Origin: Eledone cirrhosa
Taxonomy: Eukaryota
Direction: 5' to 3'
Length of the DNA stretch: 64,000 nt
NCBI GenBank assembly: GCA_964016885.1
Contig: OZ024755.1
Location: 15,314,001 to 15,378,000, forward strand
Part shown: one piece after another, positions 5,630 through 60,471 of the stretch
Position numbering within the stretch: position 1 is the first letter of the stretch
Layout: each line of letters starts with the position of its first letter
Translations under genes and position numbers: made by a program
Notes under the pieces: model-generated
What the model saw: the letters and a program-made list of their open reading frames with translations, nothing else
Databases searched by the model: none
Told to the model about the DNA's origin: nothing

Positions 5630-6204
5630 GTTTTGCGAGGTTTTTTATATGAAATCGTGTGTCGAAACAGATATTGTTATATTTGGGGAGGGTCATATTT
5701 GCGTAATATTGCCAGAATTAATAACAGAACACACTCACTGTTTGGTTGGTTTTCGCTTCTCGCTGTCTTTTATATATATATATCTGCGATCTAACTTACT
5801 CGGTCCTCAATGTTGCCATTGACTGACCGGCGGTCAAAAATAATACAGATACAATATAGACAAACACATATATATATAGTTTACATAAATCTTTCGTTGC
5901 ACATCTGCAACATCGTCAGTGGTGTTATATTCATTGTTCCTCCTGTTGTGTTGTATGTCTACGCCATTTTTTTTTTTTTGTTGTTCAGTCTGTCTATATA
6001 TTTATTTATTTATTTGCTTGTTTGTTTATCTTATTTTATTTTGTCTTCTTTGCGCATGCGTTTGCGTGTGTGTATAGTGTTATGTGTGATGTGTGATGTG
6101 TGACTAGTGTGTATAGTGTTGTCTGCTGGGTGACTAGTGTGTGTTTATGTGCTTGTGTATGTATTTATTTATCTTATTTTATTTAATTTAATTTACTTAT
6201 TTAT

Positions 6205-6850
6205 TTATACTTCTCTTAGGTCAGTGTTGTTTGTTTGGGTGTTGTTGTTGTTCCACTCATTCTTTCTGTTTAGCTTTGGTCTTCTAATTTCTATTTCACT
6301 GGCCTCTCTGATTTGCCTATCTGCTGGGTCATTCCTATGTTTAGATATTATTCTAATTTCTATGTTGTCTATGTTACCGTCATGATGTTGTCTAGCATGT
6401 TCGTATAGTACTGACCCGTTTTTTCGTCCTTTTAGTTCCCCCCAGTGTTGGTCTATCCTTTCACCTATGCTACGAGCTGTCTCACCTATGTATGTTGTTG
6501 TCGTGTTTCTGCAAGTACCCTCTGTACATCTTATGCTATAGACTACGTTTCTAGTTTTACAGTTTATCCGGGGGTTCACCTTACATATGATACATTTCCT
6601 ATTGGTACAGTGGGTTTTCTTAAAAGGGTAGGTTTTGCTGATCAGGGATTTTATGGTGGTTCCTGGCTTTTCTACCACCTTTATTTTTAAGTGGGTCTTT
6701 CTCAGGGCCTTTCTACACTGGTTAGCTAATTTCCCTCCAGGGGTGGCGTCCACAAACATGACACTCTGATATCTCTGGTTGTCGTACCATGATGTGGCCT
6801 TCCCTATCTTATGTCTAGCCCTATCTAAGCTATTCCATGATTTGCTCCTG
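6205..6850 (-). pseudogene. Inverted duplicate of the PLE ORF C-terminus (GIY-YIG domain)
   Basis: The ORF track translation is identical to the last 184 aa of the 6916..8826 ORF. Confidence 0.93.
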
Positions 6851-8826
6851 ACATCCTAAAGCCAAGCAGACGCACTGCCAACAACTTCCAGGCGTCTAAC
6901 AATGGCATACCACCCTTGTATGGGCTCCGCAAAGACCACAAGACAGTCGACGACCCGACAATAGGACCACCAACAAGACCTGTATGCGGAGCTAATATAG
7001 CTAGCAACTACAGGATCTCCTACTTCCTCTCAATGGTTATACGCCCCATAATGAAGATGTCCCCAGATGTATGTGAAAGTACAGAGGACCTCCTCAGCAG
7101 AATCAGTGAGTGCAACAAAAACAGGAGCCTATCCAACTGCATAATAGGCAGCATGGATGTGGTGTCACTGTACCCATCCATTAACATTGATTTTGCTGTG
7201 AAAAGATGTGTGGAGATGATCATTGAGAGTGAGGTGGAGTTCTGCGACGTCGACACAGACGAACTGGGCCTCCTACTTAGACTTACCTACGACACTGACT
7301 ACCTAGACAGCCATGACCTTAGATGTTTCTGCCCTAGTAGACCTATAAGAGGTAGACCCCCCACCATAACCTCAATGGCTAAAAAGACTCCCATAGGAAG
7401 GTGGATTGGGTGGACCAAAGCTATACGGACCCCCCAAAACACTGATCAGGTAAGAAAAATGGTCGCACATGCAATAGGGGCTAGTATCAAAACTACCCTA
7501 AAGGGCCACATATTTAAGTTCAATGAGAAAATCTACACCCAAAATGAGGGAGCAGCCATCGGCGTCAGCATAGCTGGCGATGTTGCCAACCTTTTCATGG
7601 TATGGTGGGAAAGGAGACTTAAAGATCTCCTTAATGAAAGCTCCATAGACCTCATCATGTACTCTCGTTATGTAGACGATATCAATATAGTTATAAGAAC
7701 ACCCCCACTAGAGAGCACTAACAAGTTTGATTTAGAACGTAGCACGATGGAAAGCATCCAGCAGATAGCTAATTCCATACACCAGAGTATAACTGTAACT
7801 ATAGACTTCCCTTCCAAACACCCTAACAATAGACTACCTGTATTAGACACAGAACTCTGGATTAACACTATAGACGAGAGAGCCCAAATTCTCCACTCAC
7901 ACTATGCTAAACCCATGGCCTCCAAATACCTGATACTCAAAAACTCAGCAATGTCCAGTAGTGCTAAGTTTAATATTCTGATCGCAGATTTGGTACGAGT
8001 GATGAAGAATGTGTCCAGCATGTGCGACCCAAAAGAAATGGAAGGACACATCCAACACTTCATCAACCGCATGCAGTTCTCTGGCTACAACCAAAGAGAC
8101 AGAGTCAGAGTATACGAAGGAGCCATGGAAAAGTATAAGACCCTCATAGAACTGGACATGAAAGGAATTTGCCCACTATACAGGAGCAAATCATGGAATA
8201 GCTTAGATAGGGCTAGACATAAGATAGGGAAGGCCACATCATGGTACGACAACCAGAGATATCAGAGTGTCATGTTTGTGGACGCCACCCCTGGAGGGAA
8301 ATTAGCTAACCAGTGTAGAAAGGCCCTGAGAAAGACCCACTTAAAAATAAAGGTGGTAGAAAAGCCAGGAACCACCATAAAATCCCTGATCAGCAAAACC
8401 TACCCTTTTAAGAAAACCCACTGTACCAATAGGAAATGTATCATATGTAAGGTGAACCCCCGGATAAACTGTAAAACTAGAAACGTAGTCTATAGCATAA
8501 GATGTACAGAGGGTACTTGCAGAAACACGACAACAACATACATAGGTGAGACAGCTCGTAGCATAGGTGAAAGGATAGACCAACACTGGGGGGAACTAAA
8601 AGGACGAAAAAACGGGTCAGTACTATACGAACATGCTAGACAACATCATGACGGTAACATAGACAACATAGAAATTAGAATAATATCTAAACATAGGAAT
8701 GACCCAGCAGATAGGCAAATCAGAGAGGCCAGTGAAATAGAAATTAGAAGACCAAAGCTAAACAGAAAGAATGAGTGGAACAACAACAACACCCAAACAA
8801 ACAACACTGACCTAAGAGAAGTATAA
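6850..8826 (+). CDS. PLE reverse transcriptase plus GIY-YIG endonuclease (N-terminally truncated, uninterrupted frame)
   Basis: Motifs PPLYGLRKDHK, RPVC, SMDVVSLYPSI, QNEGAAIG, RYVDDI and LPVLD; Cys linker CTNRKCIIC; NVVYSIRC...YIGETARSIGERIDQH...LYEH...RQIREA...LNRKNE. The frame is open from the inversion junction, and the TTG at 6916 is not a true start. Confidence 0.95.
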   Translation, partial: DILKPSRRTANNFQASNNGIPPLYGLRKDHKTVDDPTIGPPTRPVCGANIASNYRISYFLSMVIRPIMKMSPDVCESTEDLLSRISECNKNRSLSNCIIGSMDVVSLYPSINIDFAVKRCVEMIIESEVEFCDVDTDELGLLLRLTYDTDYLDSHDLRCFCPSRPIRGRPPTITSMAKKTPIGRWIGWTKAIRTPQNTDQVRKMVAHAIGASIKTTLKGHIFKFNEKIYTQNEGAAIGVSIAGDVANLFMVWWERRLKDLLNESSIDLIMYSRYVDDINIVIRTPPLESTNKFDLERSTMESIQQIANSIHQSITVTIDFPSKHPNNRLPVLDTELWINTIDERAQILHSHYAKPMASKYLILKNSAMSSSAKFNILIADLVRVMKNVSSMCDPKEMEGHIQHFINRMQFSGYNQRDRVRVYEGAMEKYKTLIELDMKGICPLYRSKSWNSLDRARHKIGKATSWYDNQRYQSVMFVDATPGGKLANQCRKALRKTHLKIKVVEKPGTTIKSLISKTYPFKKTHCTNRKCIICKVNPRINCKTRNVVYSIRCTEGTCRNTTTTYIGETARSIGERIDQHWGELKGRKNGSVLYEHARQHHDGNIDNIEIRIISKHRNDPADRQIREASEIEIRRPKLNRKNEWNNNNTQTNNTDLREV

Positions 8827-9106
8827 ATAAATAAGTAAATTAAATTAAATAAAATAAGATAAATAAATACATACACAAGCACATAAACACACACTAGTCA
8901 CCCAGCAGACAACACTATACACACTAGTCACACATCACACATCACACATAACACTATACACACACGCAAACGCATGCGCAAAGAAGACAAAATAAAATAA
9001 GATAAACAAACAAGCAAATAAATAAATAAATATATAGACAGACTGAACAAAAAAAAAAAAAAATGGCGTAGACATACAACACAACAGGAGGAACAATGAA
9101 TATAAC

Positions 9107-9147
9107 ACCACTGACGATGTTGCAGATGTGCAACGAAAGATTTATGT
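9107..9147 (+). ncRNA. Hammerhead ribozyme-like motif in the PLE terminal repeat (mirror copy at 5883-5923, minus strand)
   Basis: CTGACGA-T-GTTGCA-gatg-TGCAAC-GAAA-gatt-TA-tg. Canonical core and 6-bp stem II, but stem I is weak. Confidence 0.65.
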
Positions 9148-9358
9148 AAACTATATATATATGTGTTTGTCTATATTGTATCTGTATTATTTTTGACCGC
9201 CGGTCAGTCAATGGCAACATTGAGGACCGAGTAAGTTAGATCGCAGATATATATATATAAAAGACAGCGAGAAGCGAAAACCAACCAAACAGTGAGTGTG
9301 TTCTGTTATTAATTCTGGCAATATTACGCAAATATGACCCTCCCCAAATATAACAATA

Positions 9359-11656
<2,298 letters not shown>

Positions 11657-12871
11657 AGGCCTTTGACAGGGTTGATCATAACATTCTACTGAGAAAGCTG
11701 TCCAATATTGGTGTCACTGGAAAGCTGCTGCAGTGGATCAAGAGCTTCCTGTCAAACAGAACCCAACATGTTGTAGTTGAGGGAGTCAAATCCAGCCCAG
11801 CCAAAGTCAGTAGTGGGGTCCCACAAGGCACTGTGTTGGGCCCACTTCTCTTTATCAGCTATATTAATGACATCACTGACATCATCAAACACAGCAACAT
11901 TAAAATTTTCGCTGATGATTCCAAGCTCCAAAAGGTCATCAATGGCGTGGATGACCGGATAAGCCTTCAGTCAGACCTACTGGCTGTTACCCAATGGGCG
12001 GAAAAGAACAACATGTTACTGAACGAAGACAAATTCGAACTGATCCACTTTGGAAAAGAGGATGCTCTGAAACTCCCGTACTCCCTTCCCTCCGGGGAAA
12101 CTCTCGTGGCATCTAACAACATCAGAGACTTGGGACAGCAACATAAGCTGGACCACGCATATAAGCAGCAAAGTTGACATGGCCCGCTGAATGTGTTCCT
12201 GGATCCTCAGAACCTTCCAGTCGAGAGATTCCCGCACCATTATCCTTCTCTTCTCTACTTTTGCCCGACCACACCTTGAATACTGTTGTCCACTGTGGTC
12301 TCCCCACACGAAACAAAGTATCATGAAACTTGAAGCTCCTCAAAGGGCAATCACGAAAAAGATAGATGGCATGTCAGACCTTGACTACTGGGGTCGATTA
12401 GAAAACCTGAAACTTTACTCACTCCAACGTCGCCGTGAGCGTTATATTATCTGCATGATGTGGAAAATGTTCCATCATCACTGCCCAAATGATGTTGGCA
12501 TCGCCTTCAAGATACACCCAAGGCTTGGGCCCCGTGCTATCCGTCCCATTCAAAAATCTAAATCGCAACTCATAACAACAATACGGCAAAATTATTTCAC
12601 CTCAATCGGCCCTGCTCTCTTCAACATCACACCAGGACACGTCAAAACAGAAACTGACCACACAAAATTCAAGAAGTCTTTGGACAAATTCCTCCAAGTA
12701 ATCCCGGACAAACCACCCACACCCGGATATGTCTCCGCAAACAGTAATTCTCTTCTCGAATGGGCCATGGTGCCCAAATCCTGAATTGAAAGACTTCGCC
12801 AGGTGGTGCTATTAAGTTAGACATGGCCTGGGCCAATACTGGCCAAAACATTTCAAAGTTATTCAAAGTTA
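11657..12871 (+). mobile_element. 5'-truncated CR1-clade LINE copy (same family as 56232-61199)
   Basis: Starts at KAFDRVDH and contains [13 protein letters not shown] and FADD. An 11-bp deletion near 12133 shifts the frame. Ends with (TTCAAAGTTA)2. Nearly identical to the full-length copy. Confidence 0.95.
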
Positions 12872-13488
12872 TATGTATATATATACATACATATACATAT
12901 ATATACATATATACATATATATATACATATATATACATATATATATATATACATATATATACATATATATACATACATATATATATACATACATATATAT
13001 ATACATACATACATATATATATACATACATATATATATATACATACATATATATATACATACATATATATATACATACATATATATATACATACATATAT
13101 ATATACATACATATATATATACATACATATATATATACATATATATATATACATACATATATATATACATACATATATATATACATACATATATATATAC
13201 ATACATATATATATACATACATATATATATATACATACATATATATATACATACATATATACATACATATATATATATATACATACATATATACATACAT
13301 ATATATATATATACATACATATATATATATACATACATATATATATACATACATATATATATATACATACATACATATATATACATACATACATATATAT
13401 ACATACATACATATATATATATATACATACATATATATATATACATACATATATACATATATATATATACATACATATCTCTCTCTAT
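12872..13488. repeat. TACA/TA microsatellite
   Basis: Direct inspection. Confidence 0.97.
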
Positions 13489-28020: not shown

Positions 28021-29779
28021 ATTAAAAAAGCTAAAAGAAAAAGAGATACAATTAGTCATATTAGTTTCACTTCCGTTAGAAAACGAAAGACACACACACA
28101 TGTATGATTGTGTGTATATATATATATATATATGTATATTTATTTATGTATGTATATAAATTCATATATTTCTGTATTCGTGCGTGATATATAAATGTGT
28201 TTATGTATAGAGATAAATTTAATGGCTGGCATGTTAAATACTTAGTGCATAGGGTTGATGTAAATATACTATAATATAGGTTTTGACAATAATAAAGGAG
28301 AGAAATGTGTTACAAAAGAGAAATATCGAACGATATATTTTGTAGTTGGATTCTTTCAGTGAAATGTGAAATAAATAAAGAAATGAATGGCTAGGAATTT
28401 GATTTCTGGTATAAAATGTAATATATTGTATTATTTAAGAAAACGTAGGATATAGTTGAAGGAAATAAAAATACAAAATCATATCGTAGAATTGTATAAA
28501 ATATTGATCAACTCATTAGAAAGGTGAAGACCAAACAGAGATAAATTAAACATCTCAAATATATAGAAATAAGCCACATAAAGAAATAATAAATAGTTAC
28601 TGTTAAGTGTGGGAATATATTTTGATTATCCTTTCGCAATTCGTTTTAATAATAGAAAGCCAAAGGAATGAGAATGGTGGAGGCGAAGAAGACAAAGAAT
28701 TATGTGGATGGGTAATATAAAGAATTGAACCGACTTAAAATGTTGTAAATTTAAATGGACAGTAGGAAAAAAGCCAAGATCCTGACCATGTTTTTCAGAC
28801 TGCTGAGAACAAACGTTAACCGTTGCTGCTGGTGATGATGATGATGATGAATGTGTAGTGCAGTCGTAGAATCATTTGAGCATCGGATTATATGCTGTGA
28901 AGCATCTATTTATGACCTATTACATCCAAATCCCACCGAGATCTACTTTACCATTCATTCTTTTGTGGTCGATAAAACAATGTAGCAGTAATTATTGGGA
29001 TCGATATAGTTGAGTTTACCCCCACCAAAAGTGCATTCCTTGTACCTAATTTAGAAATCAAAATTTATAAGCTCGTATTTTTTACAACAGAAAAGAAGCA
29101 CCCATGTGTGCGTATGTACTTGCAATTCAGCCTGTGATATTAAATAGTAGTAAACACTCTTCTAAATATAAATAACAGAAATTAACTTTGAAAAAATGTA
29201 CAGGCATGGCTGGGTTGTCAAAAAGGGCGGTCTGCCATCATGATGCATTTTGTATCGTTTCATTCAATCTACAAAACTTTCCAGAACAACACAGTATCTC
29301 CTATGAACTTACACATACACACACACACATACATACATACATATACACTTGATTTGAATTTAAACGAAGCTGGAGTCGTCATCTTTACGTTAAACAATAT
29401 AAAATGTTTCATTGTAATTTCACCATTTATCGTTTTACGAACCAATGTATTGCCCCGCAAAGAAAGCTAACTGGCATAATCCCCGTGTGGTATCTTGAGC
29501 AAAGGTCACGAAAGACCCAAGCCTCTTGAGTAAGGTGTTGTAGACAAGGAGAGCCATGAAAGGGACTGTATCAGTAATTCGTTACACATGGTATAATACT
29601 GAATGTATCCGAGAATTCATTTATGAGTACACGTCTCAGTGGTACACACTAACATATATACATACATATCATGCACTATGCTGATTTGTGCTGTTCTCGC
29701 AACACAGACTATCCATCTAAACCTATGTGTGTGTATGCATACGCACACACACGGGAAAGAGAGAGAGAGAGAGAGAGAG

Positions 29780-30003
29780 AGAAGTGGTTACACAACAGTT
29801 AGTTCACCATACCGAGAATAATTGTTTCACCTTAGCGGATCCTCAGCTCGTAATATACGAGCATTACGAGCTGAGGATCCGCTAAGGTGAAACAATTATT
29901 CTCGGTATGGTGAACTAACTGTTGTGTAACCACTTCTACCTAACTCGTCCCATGGACTGAGTGCTCTACGACTACAGATATTACCTTCCAGTGTTCTACC
30001 ACT
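29780..30003. mobile_element. Palindromic PLE-type remnant with hammerhead motif and tail
   Basis: Perfect 75-bp arms 29780-29854/29863-29937. CTGAGGA-TCC-gctaa-GGT-GAAA-caatta-tt-CTCG at 29867-29904. Tail 29938-30003. Confidence 0.8.
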
Positions 30004-45852: not shown

Positions 45853-47973
45853 TCATCATCATCATCATCACCGTTTTACGTCCGTTCTTCCACGCTAGCA
45901 TGGGTTAGACGGGTTGTCCTGTTGTGGGCAGTGTCTGGTCGGCTGACCATGCCTTGCTCATACAGGAACTGATCTGGCTTGATTTCCACAGCTGGATGCC
46001 CTTCCTAACACCAACCTCATTTACAGTGAGTGCTGGGTGCTTTTTCGTGGCGCCTACACGTCCACTTTACAGTGTGGGCTGGGTGCTTTTTTGCCGTGGC
46101 ACCTCCACGACCACCTTGCGGTGGGGGGGGGGGCATATTGTTTATATGCTTCAGCATGTACCCATGGGAGGTCGGGTACCCTGTATTACTGCGTGACGCC
46201 AGAAGTCACGGTCGTGTGTCATTGACTTTGAGAGGTGTAGTTGGGTAAGGTCGGCTTTTATCACCTCATCCCAAGTCATCTTGGGTCTCCCCACTCCGCG
46301 GTTTCCATCAACTTCTAGTGCTCTGCACCTTTTTATGCAGCTGTCATCCTTCATACGCATCACATGTCCATACCAGCGTAACCGCCTCTCCTGCACGCAG
46401 CATTTGATTCCTCTTATGCTCAGTCTCTCTCTCAATTCATTTATGCTTTGTCGTTCACGTATATTACTGTTACACATCCATCGGAGCATGCAGGCTTCGT
46501 TTCTCTCTAATCTACGTAAGTCTTCCACCTTCAGCGCCCAGGTCTCACTACCATGCAACATCGCTGTTCGGATACACGCATCATACAGTCTGCCTTTCAT
46601 TCTGAGGGAGAAGCCTTTTGCAGCTAGCAGTGGTAGTAGTTCCCTAAACTTCTTCCATCCCGTTCTTACCCTAGTTATTGTACTTTCTGAGCACCCACCT
46701 CCGTTGCTAATTCGGTCACCTAGGTAGCAGAAGCTGTCTACTGTTTCTACAGGGCCCTCCCAGAGATTGGTGGTACTTGTTTCCTGTGGCTGTTTGCTTG
46801 CTGTTTCAGCACAGCTGCTGCATGTGAATCCTACATTCTTAATTAAGCTTCCTGAGATCCCGCTACATCTCTTGTGTACCCATTGTTTGCATTTGGGGCA
46901 GAGAATGGAGTTCCTACCTACACCTTTCCTACATACTGAGCAAGGCCATTTCCCTGAGGGGATCTGGGTTCTGTTTTCTCGTCTACTTATAAGGACCTTA
47001 GTCTTTGTCATGTTGACTTTGAGGCCCTTTCTCTCTAGTCCCTGCTTCCAGGTTTGGAATTTATTCTCTAGTTCTACCATAGATTCAGCTATGAGTGCGA
47101 GGTCATCAGCATACAGGAGTTTCCATGGGCATCCGGTCTTAAACTCCTCCGTTATTGCCTGCAGGACTATGATGAACAGGAGAGGGCTAAGAACAGAGCC
47201 CTGGTGGACCCCAACCTGTACGCTAAATTCCTCGCTATACTCATTGCCAATCCTAACTTTGCTGACTGCTCCCCTATACATGGCTTGTACCGCTTTCACA
47301 AGCCATTCATCTACTCCTAGTTTTCTAAGAGCCCACCAGATTACTGCACGTGGAACTCTGTCAAAGGCTTTCTCAAGGTCGACAAATGCCAAGTAGAGTG
47401 GCTTACTTTTAGCTAGGTACTTTTCCTGTAATTGCCTCACAAGGAAGAGCGCATCAGTGGTGCCTTTCCCTGGTACAAACCCAAATTGCATCTCGTCTAT
47501 ATTCACCCGGTCCCTAATCAGCTGTGCTATAACTCTTTCTGTTACTTTCATGACCTGGTCCATCAACTTTATACCTCTATAGTTTCCTCTATCTAGTGCA
47601 TCGCCTTTACCTTTGTAGCAGTTGACAATGATGCTACTGCACCAATCTTTTGGTATGGCCCCCTCTAGTATTACCTGGTTAACGATACGTGTGGTTATAG
47701 TGTGACCTACAGACCCAGATGCCTTCAGCATCTCGGCAGCTATACCCGATGGACCGGTTGCCTTCCCTATCTTCATATCTCTGATTGCCTTACTTACTAC
47801 GCTGCCGCTGACTTGTACTGCTGGTCCCTCTATAGGGTCTACGTGGGGTAGGGTCTCTTCTTCCCATGCATTCTCCTCATTTAGTAATCTATCATAATGA
47901 CTCTTCCATGCATCTTTCTTCTCAGCACTTGTGAGGGCAAGCTCACCTTTATCATTCCGGATACACTTCTCTA
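45851..47973 (-). mobile_element. RTE (BovB-like) LINE, 5'-truncated, (GAT)n tail
   Basis: RT ORF plus 3' UTR. Flanked by TA microsatellite. Confidence 0.95.
46151..47972 (-). CDS. RTE reverse transcriptase with inserted PHD-like zinc finger (real part of the 1340-aa ORF)
   Basis: [66 protein letters not shown] and RRLRWYGHV. No stops. Confidence 0.93.
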
Positions 47974-48070
47974 TATACACTTCTATACACTTCTCTATAT
48001 ACACTTCTATACACTTCTCTATATACACTTCTATACACTTCTCTATATACACTTCTATACACTTCTCTAT
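47961..48070. repeat. 24-bp tandem repeat at the RTE 5' junction
   Basis: (ATACACTTCTCTATATACACTTCT) about 4.5 times. Confidence 0.92.
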
Positions 48071-50170
<2,100 letters not shown>

Positions 50171-50366
50171 CATACTTATACGTGTACATACTTATATTTA
50201 AGTAACAGCCGTACTAAGAGTGGGAAATGAAATATCGTTTCATTTTTTCCGTTTATCGTTTTCGGTGCACCCGGCCGATTAACCCACTCGATATGCAAAT
50301 TGGGCTACTCAGCCGTTAATATGCATAAGGTAAGTATATACGTTCAACAATCTGGCAGGAAGGTAT

Positions 50367-50409
50367 ACGTTGCTGACGATAGCTAACAAGCTTGAAACTA
50401 GTACAGCGT
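50367..50409 (+). ncRNA. Minimal type I hammerhead ribozyme
   Basis: ACGTTG-CTGACGA-T-AGCT-aaca-AGCT-T-GAAA-CTAG-TA-CAGCGT. Complete core, palindromic stem III ACTAGT and GUA cleavage triplet. Confidence 0.88.
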
Positions 50410-50690
50410 TCCTTTGTCAGTGTTGAACAAACGAGCAACGGTGGTTGCTAGACACTACGGCTTAATACGGGATGTTTGTTTACAAACACACCGAGCATTA
50501 TAATAAATGTTCGGTGAATCCATACGTGCATATATATATGTGTGCATGTATGTATATATATATATACATACTACTGTACGTCGGTATACATATATGTATG
50601 TACGTGTACATACTTATATATATATATATATATATATACATATGTATATATGTATATATATATATATATATATATCTACATATGTATATA

Positions 50691-50729
<39 letters not shown>

Positions 50730-50736
50730 GTATATA

Positions 50737-50775
<39 letters not shown>

Positions 50776-50860
50776 GTATATATATTTATATATACATATA
50801 TATATATATATATATAAATATATATACATATGTATATATATATATGTATATATATATATG

Positions 50861-50910
<50 letters not shown>

Positions 50911-51004
50911 TATATACATATGTATATATATTTATATATACATATATATATATATATATAAATATATATACATATGTATATATATATATGTATATATATA
51001 TATG

Positions 51005-51053
<49 letters not shown>

Positions 51054-51088
51054 GTATATATGTATATATATATATATATGTATATATG

Positions 51089-51191
<103 letters not shown>

Positions 51192-51192
51192 G

Positions 51193-51293
<101 letters not shown>

Positions 51294-51949
51294 GTATATG
51301 TATATATATATATACGTATATATATATATACATATATATATATGCACATATATATATATATCCACACACACACAATCACACACCGCAAATTTAACATCAA
51401 CTATATTCGAGTGTGGTAGTGTGGAAACTGGATTCGTTTTTCATTATTCGGTTCTCCTTTATTCGGTTTCCTTGGTTACTATATTGATTGATTAGGGCTG
51501 AATCATTTTTGGAACAATTAAATAGTGTGATAATCTACCAATAAAGATTGAGATTAAGTTATATTCTACCGATAATCAATTGTAGCTATTGAACACGGCA
51601 TTAGTATCTGATTGTTTTATACGTGACTTGGGCGTGTTTGCTAAATGAAATGCAAATATACATCCTTATATAAATATACACATACATAGACATATACATA
51701 CTTAACTATGTATGTAACTACATTTATTCATACAGTCAGATATTCATGTATATATATATATATATATATATATACAGACACACACACAGGAATGTACACA
51801 AAGCTACGAACACACAGATATATGCACACGCACACATGCATATATACATATATATATGTATATACATATATATATATATATATTTATATACATATATATA
51901 TATATATATTTATATACATATATATATATATATATACATATATATATAC

Positions 51950-52149: not shown

Positions 52150-53451
52150 ATTTCGTTTCTGAATTTGTTTAGCAAGATTCTTTATCTGAAATCGTGTGTT
52201 GAAACCGATATTGTTATACTTTGGGAGGGTCATGTTGCCAATAAGAAACACACGCACCAGTTTCGTTCACTTCAATTTATTATATATTTATAAATTTACA
52301 AATTTATAAATTTATAAATTTCTGGTTGGATGGTTGGTTCCACAACCAGATAGTTGTTTATATATAGTCATAGTTCTTTCGTCACACACTCTGTGACCTC
52401 TTCAGTGACTGGGGATTCCTTTCTTTGTTTCTGTGCCTCTCCTTTGTTCTGTCCTACGCTATTTTGTTTCTGTGTGTGTGTTGTGTGCTCAGTCTGCGCA
52501 TGCGCCACATCCGGGTGTCTGTGTGTGTTTATGTTCATTTATTTATTTGTTTATTTACATGTTACTGGTTGGTTGTTTGTTCTATGTGTGTGTGTGTTTT
52601 CATTTTGTCCTTAATTGTAAGTTGTGATGTTGCTGTTCCACTTATATTTTCTATTTAATTTTGTTTGTAATTCTTTTATGTTTATTGCCTCTGTAATTTG
52701 TCTAAACATTGCGTCTTTTCTGTGTAGATTCTATTTTTATTTCTATGTTCTCTAATTTACCCTTGTGTTCTATCTTAGCATGTTGGTAGAGTACAGATGA
52801 TTCTTTATTATCTTGAAGGTCTCGCCAGTGTTCATTTATCCGTTCCCCTACACTAAGATCTGTATCACCTATGTACACTATATTTTTGTCTCTACATTGT
52901 CCTTCAGTACATCTTATGCTATACACTACATTTCTAGTTTTACAGTTAATATGGGGGCTTATTTTACAGGTTATACATTTATCTATACATGAGGGTCTTT
53001 GAAAAGGGTATGTCTTGCTAATAAGTGTTTTTACGGAGGTACCTGGTTTTCTACTATCTTAATATTGAGTTTATGTTTATTTAGGGCCCTTCTAAATTTG
53101 TAAGCTAATTCACCTCTAGGTGTTGTATTGATGAACATTACACTCTGGTATTTATTGCTATCATACCATGAGTTTATTCTATTAGCCTTGTTCCTAGTTC
53201 TTTCTATTCTATTCCAAAATTTGCTCCTATACAAGGGGCAGGTCCCATTTATGTCATTATTTACCATTTTTTACCATTTGGTTCTGGCTCCTCTATACAC
53301 TCTGATTTTATCTCTCTGATTGTAGCCAGAGAACTGCATACGGTGGAGGAAGTGTTGTATGTGTCTCTCTAGTTCTTTGGGGTTGCACATGCGGGACACA
53401 TTTCTCATCACCCGTACCAAATCCGCAATCAGTATGCTGATTTTGGTATGG
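52150..53451 (-). mobile_element. Older degenerate copy of a sister PLE family (related to 5628-9358)
   Basis: Frameshifted homology: ILIADLVRVMRNVSRMCNP, CPLYRSKFWN, KYQSVMF, YSIRCTEGQC..YIGDT..GERINEHW and SVLYQH. Conserved terminus. Confidence 0.92.
52366..52410 (-). ncRNA. Minimal type I hammerhead ribozyme in the PLE terminal repeat
   Basis: AGTCA-CTGAAGA-G-GTCACA-gagtg-TGTGAC-GAAA-gaac-TA-TGACT. Confidence 0.85.
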
Positions 53452-53463
53452 TTTAATATAGAT

Positions 53464-53512
53464 GAGATTCTACAAGACTAGAACTGTTTCATTCTTTAGA
53501 AATCATCAGGAA

Positions 53513-55427: not shown

Positions 55428-55722
55428 TATATACATATATATACATATATACATATATATATATATATACATATATACATATATACATATATATACATAT
55501 ATACATATATACACATATATATATACATATATATACATATATATACATATATATACATATATATATACATATATACATATATATACATATATATAATACA
55601 TATATACATATATACATATATACATATATATATATACATATATATACATATATATACATATATACAGTATATATATACATATATATACATATATATATAC
55701 ATATATATACATATATATATAC

Positions 55723-55755
<33 letters not shown>

Positions 55756-56231
55756 CATATATATATACATATATATATACATATATATATACATATATAT
55801 ATATACACATATATATACACATATATATACACATATATATATACATATATATATACATATATATATACATCTATATATACATCTATATATACATCTATAT
55901 ATACATCTATATATACATCTATATATACATCTATATATACATCTATATATACATCTATATATACATCTATATATACATCTATATATACATCTATATATAC
56001 ATCTATATATACATCTATATATACATCTATATATACATCTATATATACATCTATATATACATCTATATATACATCTATATATACATCTATATATACATCT
56101 ATATATACATATATATATACATATATATATACATATATATATACATATATATATACATATATATATACATATATATATACATATATATATACATATATAT
56201 ATACATATATATATACATATATATATACATA
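53528..56231. repeat. Compound TA/TACA microsatellite, with a homogeneous 12-mer (ACATCTATATAT)n at about 55870-56100
   Basis: Direct inspection. Confidence 0.98.
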
Positions 56232-56308
56232 TAACTTTGAAATGTTTTGGCCAGTATTGGCCCAGGCCATGTCTAACTTAATAGCACCACCTGGCGAAGT
56301 CTTTCAAT

Positions 56309-59300
56309 TCAGGATTTGGGCACCATGGCCCATTCGAGAAGAGAATTACTGTTTGCGGAGACATATCCGGGTGTGGGTGGTTTGTCCGGGATTACTTGGA
56401 GGAATTTGTCCAAAGACTTCTTGAATTTTGTGTGGTCAGTTTCTGTTTTGACGTGTCCTGGTGTGATGTTGAAGAGAGCAGGGCCGATTGAGGTGAAATA
56501 ATTGTGCCGTATTGTTGTTATGAGTTGCGATTTAGATTTTTGAATGGGACGGATAGCACGGGGCCTAAGCCTTGGGTGTATCTTGAAGGCGATGCCAACA
56601 TCATTTGGGCAGTGATGATGGAACATTTTCCACATCATGCAGATAATATAACGCTCACGGCGACGTTGGAGTGAGTAATGTTTCAGGTTTTCCAATCGAC
56701 CCCAGTAGTCAAGGTCTGACATGCCATCTATCTTTTTCGTGATTGCCCTTTGAGGAGCTTCAAGTTTCATGATACTTTGTTTCGTGTGGGGAGACCACAG
56801 TGGACAACAGTATTCAAGGTGTGGTCGGGCGAAAGTAGAGAAGAGAAGGATAATGGTGCGGGAATCTCTCGACTGGAAGGTTCTGAGGATCCAGGAACAC
56901 ATTCTGCGGGCCATGTCAACTTTGCTGCTTATATGCGTGGTCCAGCTTATGTTGCTGTCCACGGTTACTCCCAAGTCTCTGATGTTGTTAGATGCCACGA
57001 GAGTTTCCCCGGAGGGAAGGGAGTACGGGAGTTTCAGAGCATCCTCTTTTCCAAAGTGGATCAGTTCGAATTTGTCTTCGTTCAGTAACATGTTGTTCTT
57101 TTCTGCCCATTGGGTAACAGCCAGTAGGTCTGACTGAAGGCTTATCCGGTCATCCACGCCATTGATGACCTTTTGGAGCTTGGAATCATCAGCGAAAATT
57201 TTAATGTTGCTGTGTTTGATGATGTCAGTGATGTCATTAATATAGATGATGAAGAGAAGTGGGCCCAACACAGTGCCTTGTGGGACTCCACTACTGACTT
57301 TGGCTGGGCCTGATTTGACTCCCTCAACTACAACATGTTGGGTTCTGTTTGACAGGAAGCTCTTGATCCACTGCAGCAGCTTTCCAGTGACACCAATATT
57401 GGACAGCTTTCTCAGTAGAATGTTATGATCAACCCTGTCAAAGGCCTTGCTGAAATCAAGGTAGATAACATCAGTGTTGGAACCCTCTCCCAAGGCTCTC
57501 AAAATGTCATCAAAGTGATGCAGTAGTTGCGTCAGGCAATCCCTTCCATTACGGAATCCATGCTGGTTGGAGTTCAGCATATTGTTACTCTCAAGGAAGT
57601 GGGTCATTCGCGATCTCACCACTCGCTCAAATACCTTAATGATATGAGAGGTGAGTGAGATTGGACGGTAATTCACGGCAAGGGATTTGTTTCCCTTTTT
57701 GAAAACTGGGACAACAGACTGGGATAGAAGGTTTTCTGGCACATATCCAGCATCCAGTGAGTTCCGCCACAGATTGGCAAGAGGAGAAGCAAGTTGGTGT
57801 TGACACGCCTTCAAGACACAAGCAGGGAACCTATCGGGACCTACTGCTGAATTATGCTTGATTTCCTTTATTGCCGCCAAGACATCAGGGGCGCCAAACG
57901 TTATGTCCGATAAGGTGTAATGGGGAGTAACATCGCCGATACAGCCCAGATCGGCCATATCAGGATTGCTGAAAACAGAGCAGTATTGTTTCTGCAGTAT
58001 CTCACCCATGGTTTTAGCATTGTCTTGAAGAGTGCCATTTTCATCAATTAGAGGGCCAAAAGTAGAGCCAGTGATTTTGTGTTTTTTTGCAAATGAAAAG
58101 AACACTTTGGGATTGAGTTTGATCTTCTCAATGGCCCAGGCCTCTTCAGCTCTTCTCTGATTGTTGATGAGGGACATTATGTTGTTTTGGAGGTTATGTT
58201 TTTTAATCTCTAGTGATGAAATGGCAGTCAAGTTGATGTGTTGCTGCTGACAGTATTTCAGCTTGTTGATTTTTTTGTTCGTTCTCTTAATTTTTCTGAT
58301 GAGTGTTTTTCTATTTCTAGGGATTCTGCTCTTAGATTTGTTTATAGTTCTTAATGGGGTGTGTTTAGCACATATGTTTGTAACAGTGTCCACAAATGTC
58401 TGCCAGGACTTTTTGATGTTAGTGGGTGTATGAGTGTGCGTGAAGGACCAGTCGACATGTGCAAGATCATGACTGATCGCTTCCCAGTTTGCATTGTGGA
58501 AATCCATAGCGTCAAACGGATGGACAGGAGAAATGACATTGGGTTTGTATATTGGACGGTGGAAACTCAGATCACAGAGAACCATGTCATGATCAGAGAG
58601 TAGAGTTTTCTCCACTGCAATATTGTGGATATTGTCAGTGTGATTGCTGAAAATTAAGTCTAGGACGTTTTTGTGGCACCTCGTTGGTTCGAGCACTAGT
58701 TGGGATAGGAAGAAATCATCCATGAAGTCAAGAAGCGATTCCACAGCTTCCCTGTCAGAGGTTGAGGCAGAAGAACCTGGTGGCAGGGTGTTTGTGGACC
58801 AGTCAACTCCGGGGAGGTTGAAGTCCCCCATCATTAAGATGTTGTCAGGGTGACACTCTTGGATGAAACACTTTATGCTGTTGAGGCATTCCTTGAAGCA
58901 TGGTACAGGCGTTTGGGGTGGCCTATAGAGCCCAACTACTAATAGGTTGTTGGTTTGACTGAATACAGTGACTGCCTCACAGTATCCATTAGTGAATATG
59001 TTCATAGCCTCTGTTGAGAAAGAATTATGGACATAAATGGCAGTTCCGCCCTTTCTTCTGCCAGCGCGATCAGCACGGATGGCTTTGAAATTTTTCACTT
59101 TCACCTCGGCTTCCAAGTGGAGGTTACTGAGATGGGTTTCAGTGAGGACGAAGAAAGGGATGTGGTTTGGATGGACATCAATCCAGTCCTCCAGGAATTT
59201 GATCTTCCATTTTTGAGTATTGGTGGAAGGGCTGATGCCTTGGGCGTTAAGCAAAAATGTAGAGGCGAGAGTGGATGGTTTTAATTGTTTTGGTGTGTTG

Positions 59301-59329
59301 TTAATTTGTTTGTTTGTTAATGGCAGCAA
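56309..59329 (-). CDS. LINE ORF2: AP endonuclease plus reverse transcriptase (1006 aa)
   Basis: LTETHL, GGTAIYV, LYRPP, MGDFN, LDLIF and SDH (APE). [33 protein letters not shown] and FADD (RT). RPHLEYC..WSP and LQRRRER (CR1-type C-terminus). Confidence 0.97.
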
Positions 59330-60471
59330 TGGGAGTTTGTGCAGTGGGGTGATAGTGGAGGGTGGTGCTGGGTGATAGCTCGAATGTTTTTTTCCAGTTC
59401 TTTTGCCAGATTCATTATGGCTAAAAAAGAGGAAGAAGTTTCCTGTTTAGAAGACTGTTGGTGACTGTGGTAGTGGTTATTTTTATGTAGGTTATGGTTT
59501 TTGTTTTTGCTTTTATTTTTAATTTTATTTTCATTTATCCGACGGGTCCCCGGGAGATGGGTAAAGGGACAATCCCGGTCTAAACACAATCTGTCTCGCA
59601 GGGAAAAACGGCAGATTTGTGGATTCCTTGTTTGAGTTATTGGTGGTTGTGTTGGTGTTAAATTAGAGTATGTATTATGGTGGTGGCTGTTTGTGGGGAT
59701 AGATCGTTTTGTCCTAGGTAAATGGGTGAATTTGCAGCCACTATCCGTACATATTCTATAGCGTAGAGAGTAGCGGCAAATGATGGGGTTTCGAGTGGGT
59801 GGGTATGTGGGTGTTGTGAGAGGTGTAGATGATGGTTTGGGTAGGATTTGACGACCTTTGTGGACTGTGGGAGGGAGAGTTCTTGTTCTGGTATTAGAAG
59901 GTAAATTCCTTGACATAGCAGTAGACAAAAATGTTGTAGTAGTAGTAGTAGTAGTAGGCAGAGATGTTGGCAGTGGTGATGATTGGACTGCTGGGCCAGA
60001 GAAAGGATGTGGCGTTTCATGCTGTGAGACAGAGGCCACTGGGGGGTCAATAGTTTCATTTAGTAGATCGGCCATTGTTGATGAATCAAGGAGTGGTTCA
60101 CACTGTTGTTGTCGTTGTTGTTGTTGTTGTTGCTGTTGTTGTTGCTGTAGCTGTTGTTGTTGCTGTTGCTGTTGTTGCTGTTGTAGCTGCTGTTGTTGTT
60201 GTTGCTGCTGCTGGACAGCATTCGAAGAGAAAACACACCGTAGTTTATCCAAATGTTTATTGATTAATTTAAAAGCAATTTCGATTTGCTTTAATTTATT
60301 TTGAATCTGTTGTTCAGATCGAGTTTTCAAAAATTGAACTGTACGTTTAGCAATGTCGTTCAGAGATGAAGCATCTATATTTTCTGTTTGGGAAAGGCAA
60401 TGCCATGTGTTTATTAGAATGTCGATTTCATTATCAGACCAGTTCTGTTTGGATTTTTGCTGGTTAGCCAT
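59317..60471 (-). CDS. LINE ORF1: Myb/SANT-like N-terminus, polyQ tract, two CCCH zinc fingers (384 aa)
   Basis: NWSDNEIDILINTW...RSEQQIQNKLK, a long Q run, CRYSLRYRICTDSGCKFTH and CRFSLRDRLCLDRDCPFTH. Overlaps the ORF2 start by 13 nt. Confidence 0.88.
   Translation of the reverse strand: MANQQKSKQNWSDNEIDILINTWHCLSQTENIDASSLNDIAKRTVQFLKTRSEQQIQNKLKQIEIAFKLINKHLDKLRCVFSSNAVQQQQQQQQQLQQQQQQQQQQQLQQQQQQQQQQQRQQQCEPLLDSSTMADLLNETIDPPVASVSQHETPHPFSGPAVQSSPLPTSLPTTTTTTTTFLSTAMSRNLPSNTRTRTLPPTVHKGRQILPKPSSTPLTTPTYPPTRNPIICRYSLRYRICTDSGCKFTHLPRTKRSIPTNSHHHNTYSNLTPTQPPITQTRNPQICRFSLRDRLCLDRDCPFTHLPGTRRINENKIKNKSKNKNHNLHKNNHYHSHQQSSKQETSSSFLAIMNLAKELEKNIRAITQHHPPLSPHCTNSHCCH

Follow-up and report, generated by a model that had tools for sequence, protein, structure and literature searches.

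A probable retrozyme-type hammerhead repeat within a TA microsatellite of a cephalopod genome

What kind of element is a single, non-coding hammerhead ribozyme (HHR) repeat that sits inside a TA microsatellite, and which enzyme placed it there? The question arises in a 64-kb window of the Eledone cirrhosa genome (the whole stretch of DNA that was analyzed), for which the original prediction, made from the letters alone, offered a solo pseudo-LTR (pLTR) of a Penelope-like element (PLE) or a retrozyme monomer. The animal retrozyme class, this type of ribozyme, and solo monomers have already been described. If confirmed, the present family would extend animal retrozymes to cephalopods and would provide a natural data set on the open question of which enzyme moves them. 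We found no description of a cephalopod retrozyme in the literature searched, and subscription papers and supplements may hold cephalopod HHRs; for giant squid, the genome paper gives a count of 235 hammerhead hits from Rfam.

One copy of an abundant repeat, ~420 bases long and non-coding, stands alone at the locus within a TA microsatellite, and its main parts are as follows.

48068 to 50178, no strand assigned: left (TA)n-type array, the likely insertion target.
50179 to 50600, plus strand: probable full repeat unit of 422 bp, with a TA-rich head, a structured core, and a TA-rich spacer; boundaries inferred.
50198 to 50525, plus strand: structured non-coding core, ~68% paired, covered end to end by family contigs.
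50620 to 51360, no strand assigned: right (TA)n-type array, which flanks the repeat unit on the right.

Depending on where its ends are set, the unit measures 328 to 422 bp, with a GC content of 0.39 to 0.42 (0.39 over 50198 to 50600). The anticipated lack of coding sequence was borne out, the longest stop-free frame in the unit being 51 aa, and TA arrays do lie on both sides. The 64-kb window holds no second copy of the HHR unit, so that the locus is solo, and we found no LTR pair there. Attachment to a PLE open reading frame (ORF), which would have marked an ordinary pLTR, is absent at this copy: no reverse transcriptase (RT) or GIY-YIG ORF adjoins the repeat in the same orientation.

The ribozyme itself can be laid out position by position, all on the plus strand.

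50367 to 50409: canonical type I hammerhead with a complete core, predicted to cut after A50403.
50367 to 50372 with 50404 to 50409: helix I, 6 bp.
50373 to 50379: catalytic core CUGACGA.
50380 to 50393: helix II, a U.U plus three Watson-Crick pairs, with a 6-nt loop.
50394 to 50397: GAAA.
50397 to 50402: helix III, weak, formed by the palindrome ACUAGU (DNA ACTAGT), where a palindromic stem III had been expected.
50401 to 50403: GTA, the predicted cleavage triplet.

The locus thus carries the catalytic core pattern CUGANGA / GAAA / UH together with helices I and II. A type I descriptor found two sites in the 64-kb window, at 50373 on the plus strand and at 52405 on the minus strand (the latter in a pseudo-LTR), and no match in 150 order-2 Markov copies of the window's 46.1-kb non-TA part. 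Rfam returned nothing at gathering level: the 501-bp region gave no hammerhead match, and on the 101-bp region Hammerhead_HH9 aligned over its full length with 19.2 bits (E 0.0083), below the cutoff of 52. The prediction of a "textbook minimal" hammerhead therefore stands as to the hammerhead, given the complete core and the 0 of 150 simulated copies, but not as to "minimal," since a helix I of 6 bp and a helix II of 4 bp make it a canonical HHR in the sense of PMC4209133. Canonical metazoan type I HHRs are described there with a helix I of 6 bp, a helix II of 4 bp, and a helix III of 1 to 2 bp whose loop is small and palindromic. Schistosome PLEs carry minimal HHRs, with similar motifs in other metazoans. 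These are described with a helix II of 7 to 8 bp, a helix I of 4 to 5 bp, an unpaired nucleotide 5′ of helix II, and a helix III that is small or absent (PMC4209133); the stretch from 50367 to 50409 does not show this combination.

Two features of the ribozyme suggest that it may work best in pairs. In axolotl, HHR_Amex1 has a weak helix III with a palindromic loop, helix II of HHR_Amex2 starts with a U.U mismatch, and both are reported to be poor at cleavage as monomers (6% and 22% in 1 h) and to improve as dimers (PMC7229834). In contrast to these two and to newt satellite 2, both weakening features are combined in one ribozyme here, which by analogy makes dimer dependence likely. The ACUAGU self-duplex is predicted at −4.8 kcal/mol; two HHR domains co-folded without constraint were predicted to form a strand-swapped duplex, not a catalytic dimer. 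Most invertebrate retrozyme HHRs are reported to be efficient monomers (PMC7229834), and one of nine frog retrozyme dimers tested is reported to have cleaved (10.64898/2026.07.22.740005).

Beyond the ribozyme, every additional helix that had been proposed was found at its place, again on the plus strand.

50207 to 50462: long-range 7-bp helix (AGCCGTA, 50207 to 50213, with TACGGCT, 50456 to 50462), predicted to close a multibranch domain.
50342 to 50428: hammerhead domain, with an extended stem I and internal loop 1 (−27.9 kcal/mol, z −3.05).
GAAGG at 50359 with CCTTT at 50411: stem I extension, pairing present.
TGGCA at 50353 with TGTCA at 50415: stem I extension, pairing present.
GTTCAACA at 50342 with TGTTGAAC at 50421: stem I extension, pairing present.
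50434 to 50449: 6-bp hairpin (AGCAAC at 50434, GTTGCT at 50444), in which common variants either preserve the pair or fall within the loop.
50489 to 50516: predicted 11-bp hairpin (CACCGAGCATT at 50489, AATGTTCGGTG at 50506).

The first two stem I extensions both use T50415, so one of them must be a pair shorter. The fold of 331 nt reaches −104.9 kcal/mol (z −4.8), in keeping with the description of the unit as highly structured; a refold of the same 331 nt with 20 shuffles gave z −3.7, and among the first 45 of 84 eligible control windows with a similar composition, 4 folded better, so the structure is strong but not exceptional. A hammerhead fold compatible with catalysis is predicted only 1.4 kcal/mol above the minimum free energy, and modeled as a circle, the unit would be 68 to 69% paired, a self-paired monomer with its HHR free. 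An octamer motif (ATGCAAAT, 50293 to 50300) also lies inside the unit.

To place this copy within its family, we drew on a run search that listed 24 sequencing runs, 20 of which hold part of the stretch and none of which is on record as RNA, a result that bears neither way on expression. Four of the 24 listed runs (X1, X7, X4, and X23) were aligned to positions 50195 to 50535 (341 bp). From X1 (organism A; kind of run unrecorded), 8,979 variant contigs were placed: 1,922 at ≥99% identity, 2,975 at 95 to 99%, 3,304 at 90 to 95%, and 778 below 90%, so that 4,082 are less than 95% alike. Summed depth is 0.3 to 2.2 million, with depths of 5 to 77 for the eight long pieces listed, depth here not being copy number. 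The diversity of the X1 contigs alone is enough to indicate a large family, which by a rough estimate would comprise thousands of copies or more if X1 is DNA. The outcome that would have spoken against an element, a single-copy locus, did not occur. A different sample of organism A (X7) contributed 108 contigs. The octamer is nearly invariant in X1, and loose ends of other copies at 50340 to 50346 point to a common subfamily with an insertion of ~8 to 10 nt before the hammerhead domain, which would lengthen a small hairpin at 50328 to 50340.

Outside organism A, the signal is slight. Organism B (X4) gave only five contigs, at depth 2 to 6; the longest has one difference over 320 bp and GATC at both junctions, and looks like a proximity-ligation chimera from carry-over. 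A raw-read run of organism E (X23) gave 0 reads in 1,938 million letters, which is informative only if the organism is otherwise shown in that run. Matches in 15 other organisms may likewise be carry-over. With five low-depth contigs in X4 and no reads in X23, we do not accept a wide distribution or horizontal transfer.

Variation within the family bears on function. Twenty-four positions vary at ≥5% of X1 depth, and none of them falls within the 12 core positions, which taken alone is modest evidence for conservation of the ribozyme. The helix I pair 50370/50406 is U.G in this copy and varies on both sides across the family: position 50406 is U in 52% of X1 depth and 86% of X7 depth, and position 50370 is A or G (20% plus 19% in X1, 69% plus 16% in X7). 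These changes are consistent with A-U and G.U pairs, phase not being read directly. Across the whole fold, pair-breaking changes number 12 among 26 substitutions, where 13.0 would be expected (P 0.39); crediting the compensated pair lowers the count to 9 (P 0.04, post hoc). Among 120 confident helix-internal positions, five vary, of which two keep the pair, two make up the compensated pair, and one breaks a pair. Neither arm of the long-range helix has a common variant in X1, and in the 11-bp hairpin one common variant turns G.U into A-U while another breaks the terminal pair. Set against the weak whole-fold test, the core and compensated-pair variants support selection on the ribozyme domain, and selection on the remaining structure is only suggested.

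The ends of the unit were estimated from a short repeat and from the loose ends of other copies.

50179 to 50197, plus strand: first copy of a 19-bp terminal motif, found elsewhere in the window only at 50601.
50256, plus strand: recurrent junction to (AT)n in other copies (39 X1 contigs among the loose ends listed).
50601 to 50619, plus strand: the 19-bp motif for a second time, likely where a next unit begins, with (TA)n at its end.

The two copies of the 19-bp direct repeat start 422 bp apart, with no third site in the window. Part of the motif, TACATACTTA, precedes position 50196 in 17 X1 contigs of other copies (among the loose ends listed), so that the motif is likely element-encoded. 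A reading as a target-site duplication (TSD) was rejected on the same ground, as part of the motif is common to other copies, and (TA)n hides any true TSD. Compared by eye, a 30-letter loose-end consensus of other copies is identical to 50588 to 50617 at 24 of 30 letters and to this copy's own 5′ flank at 19 of 30, a comparison of moderate weight because the sequence, like the terminal motif of the unit, is of low complexity. The simplest reading is that the repeat consists of a 422-bp unit plus 19 bp of the next. With the motif recurring 422 bp apart here and in part preceding other copies, the unit is probably ~420 bp, running from ~50179 to ~50600 and arranged head to tail, instead of the ~330 bp first proposed. 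The recurrent junction at 50256 likely marks a preferred 3′ end ~60 to 80 bp into the next unit, and could be equally well explained by 3′-deleted copies. The X1 terminal loose ends listed are TA-like, and the share continuing into unlike sequence is 0. Among the contigs placed on 50195 to 50535, a stretch that does not take in the TA-rich spacer and therefore could not reveal one, no joint between head-to-tail units is listed.

Two look-alikes elsewhere in the window, at 51418 to 51696 (score 74) and from 29395 onward (score 70), were rejected as homologues; both are without an HHR core, and they top a 414-window background with a long tail (next scores 67, 64, and 63). The first lies in a non-coding island between TA arrays (51375 to 51760) that holds two short motifs, an octamer and CATACTTA, and lacks an HHR core. 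Its weak similarity to the element is the best of the 414 windows without standing clearly above the tail, and the island is possibly an old relative of the element.

How does the repeat compare with known systems? Non-LTR retrozymes are recognized by a canonical type I HHR in a multicopy, non-coding unit of ~150 to 450 bp with a GC content below 50%, without LTRs, PBS, or PPT, and with a TSD, if any, of >4 bp; a retrozyme family further has head-to-tail arrays with at least two HHR units, solo monomers being accepted once arrays exist, and yields unit-length RNA in linear and circular form. In size, GC content, ribozyme, and lack of an ORF, the present repeat has what the first definition names, and the X1 contigs in their four identity bands show it to be multicopy. 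The family is thus retrozyme-like and is known here from a solo unit, formal membership hinging on tandem copies. The non-LTR retrozymes of coral, mussel, and axolotl have units of 150 to 450 bp (350 to 390 bp in mussel; Cervera & de la Peña 2020, PMC7229834). As described in that paper, they share with our repeat the canonical type I HHR, the non-coding unit of this size, the GC content below 50%, a self-paired fold that leaves the HHR nearly free, a high copy number, and co-occurrence with PLEs. Unlike them, the present locus is solo and embedded in (TA)n, its unit has an apparent TA-rich spacer, and its host lineage is cephalopod. Xenopus solo retrozyme monomers, dispersed single full-length HHR units proposed to be PLE-derived offspring (Li, Clavereau & Pollet, 10.64898/2026.07.22.740005), resemble our locus as dispersed single full-length units of an HHR repeat family. 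The Xenopus families, however, are reported to be defined from tandem arrays, and 24 of 57 match known transposable elements, mostly PLEs; in our 64-kb window there is neither an array nor a matching pLTR.

We think it probable that the locus is a solo non-LTR retrozyme-type monomer of ~420 bp, placed in the TA microsatellite by a Penelope-like RT/endonuclease by way of a retrozyme cycle. This reading draws on the intact core, the canonical architecture, the large family, and the lack of an ORF; on the terminal redundancy, the TA flanks, and the 50256 ends in (AT)n that resemble PLE 3′ ends; on the lack of similarity to pLTRs, described below; and on the conserved core with change on both sides of the pair 50370/50406. 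It was one of the two origins first proposed and is the better supported of them.

The solo pLTR has to be judged against the PLEs in the same window.

5630 to 9350, plus strand: Penelope-like element with an RT plus GIY-YIG-type ORF piece (6841 to 8826); flanked on the left by an inverted copy, with (TA)n at both ends.
52150 to 53465, minus strand: truncated, frameshifted Penelope-like element with a GIY-YIG end and its own pseudo-LTR; 3′ end into (TA)n.

In the first, the RT/endonuclease frame is open over 661 aa, and a 3′ copy lies inverted to its left. The best named match of its ORF is an Octopus vulgaris RT-domain protein (68% identity; next best, ≤56%), and its pLTR HHR (plus strand at 9111, minus strand at 5919) does not pass the helix I test and appears degenerate. 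The second is 54 to 60% identical to it in protein, and its 3′ end takes in ~85 bp of a putative ORF start, beyond which (TA)n follows; its HHR at 52405 (minus), modeled with a helix II of at least 6 bp and a helix I of 5 bp, is of PLE type and appears intact. Both elements carry a cysteine-rich linker, a feature that has been tied to Neptune/Nematis/Naiad elements and possibly to (TA)n targeting (PMC8557442). All three PLE ends in the window overrun the pLTR by a variable length into the putative ORF start of a next unit and then pass into (TA)n.

Could the repeat, then, be the solo pLTR of a 5′-truncated insertion, left by an autonomous Penelope-like family that is absent from the window? 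The window's own PLEs lend this some force, as their pLTRs of ~500 bp are HHR-bearing, partly microsatellite-like, and inserted in (TA)n. PLE HHRs are, moreover, reported to be mostly dispersed single motifs, some metazoan ones having a small palindromic helix III (PMC4209133), and the flanks of other copies of our repeat are visible to 30 letters only. EN+ Penelope-like pseudo-LTRs of the Neptune/Nematis type, as described in PMC4209133 and PMC8557442, resemble the repeat in their type I HHR, their insertion in (TA)n, and an apparent 3′ extension into the next unit. Unlike them, the repeat has no attached ORF, and its HHR, with a helix I of 6 bp and a helix II of 4 bp capped by a hexaloop, is canonical and not of the PLE type with a long helix II. 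What is repeated downstream is its own head motif, whereas the local PLE ends run into an ORF start, and the listed terminal loose ends of other copies stay TA-like. Nor does the repeat resemble the window's two pLTRs (z 0.1 and, for that of 52150 to 53465, −0.3), which match each other with a score of 280 against 104 ± 11. The nearest PLE piece, at a distance of 1.5 kb, is on the other strand and has a pLTR of its own. We therefore consider a solo pLTR unlikely, if still a serious candidate. The two readings are compatible as to origin: retrozymes are argued to be related to and derived from pLTRs (10.64898/2026.07.22.740005).

The window also contains LINE-type RT ORFs, at 46151 to 48068 and 56309 to 59446; the first is truncated and reaches the outer edge of the left TA array. 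This 5′-truncated ORF (46151 to 48073) has an RVT_1 and an internal PHD-like match, and a 24-bp tandem duplication (4.7 copies) at its truncated end abuts the array. A 1.8-kb inverted duplicate (11657 to 13478 and 55608 to 57447; 91% identity) repeats the end of a LINE, including its TA-rich tail; that LINE has the endonuclease plus RT ORF at 56309 to 59446. The repeat, the PLEs, and the LINE piece appear to be independent insertions.

Such ORFs would suit a SINE-like dispersed hammerhead element that has its own promoter and no tandem or circular stage and is moved by a LINE (e.g., RTE) rather than a PLE. The single HHR unit with no tandem copy in the window and the octamer motif at 50293 fit this picture, and hammerhead satellites of schistosome and newt are reported to have internal promoters, of snRNA type in newt (PMC2220036). 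Against it, the repeat has no tRNA-like head (nor does the window hold a tRNA gene), and the octamer occurs in the window at chance rate (6 found, 6.4 expected). The unit shows terminal redundancy, its variable 3′ ends are like those of PLEs, and a dimer-type HHR would hardly be sensible in a strictly monomeric cycle. On balance, a SINE-like element is improbable. A host-domesticated, low-copy non-coding RNA conserved in many species, to which one might be led by the 20 of 24 listed runs (16 studies, many coded organisms) that share words with the repeat, is scarcely credible, as the copy diversity of thousands of variant contigs in organism A already contradicts it, the near-identical, GATC-bounded contig of organism B suggests library carry-over, and organism E, with the proviso given above, yielded no reads.

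Returning to the retrozyme-type monomer, the published retrozyme model suggests how it could have arisen. Source copies of two or more units would be transcribed; two hammerheads, for which the weak palindromic helix III and the U.U that opens helix II call, would pair through ACUAGU, cut after GUA, and free unit-length RNA, which a host ligase would circularize. A TA-targeting PLE protein would then nick (TA)n and start reverse transcription of the multimeric or circular RNA, with AT-rich microhomologies on that RNA as priming sites. The product would slightly exceed one unit and vary at its 3′ end, which here would lie 19 bp into the next unit and in many other copies ~60 to 80 bp into it. 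Having a single ribozyme, a solo copy could not release a unit-length circle by itself; it would be dead-end offspring unless cut in trans. The element at 5630 to 9350 is a candidate for the type of mobilizing partner, and the PLEs examined (the two pLTRs in the window) share no sequence with the repeat that would point to a partner PLE. Because the family has thousands of variant copies with readable 3′ junctions in (TA)n, and its genome also carries TA-targeting PLEs, the model of PLE mobilization can be tested from junction statistics.

A bolder extension is doubtful. In a retrozyme of octopus-type genomes that is mostly dispersed, in thousands of copies or more, the element's own TA-rich spacer might serve as the priming handle for a (TA)n-targeting Penelope-like enzyme, and dimer-dependent hammerheads of separate solo loci might pair in trans and cut host read-through transcripts at many sites. 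Such an element might seed and extend cephalopod TA arrays and yield abundant circular RNA.

Pattern searches in other sequence collections gave no exact HHR matches in metagenome contigs or prokaryote genomes, and the hairpin pattern had none in viral contigs. A relaxed HHR pattern hit at least 106 metagenome loci and 21 viral loci. Among the 127 listed, only one (L022) matches the element, over the 31-nt core alone, and tblastn found a PLE ORF in none; the loci are consequently uninformative about the family. L022 (positions 1 to 1153, a metagenome contig) is identical in 29 of 31 letters of the hammerhead core and otherwise has no similarity to the element. Its terminal direct repeat implies a unit of ~1.07 kb, reverse-complement telomere-like repeats follow the ribozyme, and it resembles a non-coding telomere-associated PLE derivative. 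L002 to L106, with no tblastn match to the window's PLE protein among the matches listed, include many motifs of hammerhead type in which helix II opens with U.U or U-G and helix III is the same palindrome as here, and in L015, L027, and L087 such motifs stand in close inverted pairs. Within the window, 29779 to 29937 form a near-perfect inverted repeat with arms of ~80 bp. Each of its strands carries a hammerhead-like core in degenerate form (plus strand at 29871, minus strand at 29846), with a U.U at the base of a short helix II. The fold of this repeat is the strongest of the 45 control windows (z −17), and it possibly represents the tail-to-tail ends of another HHR repeat family.
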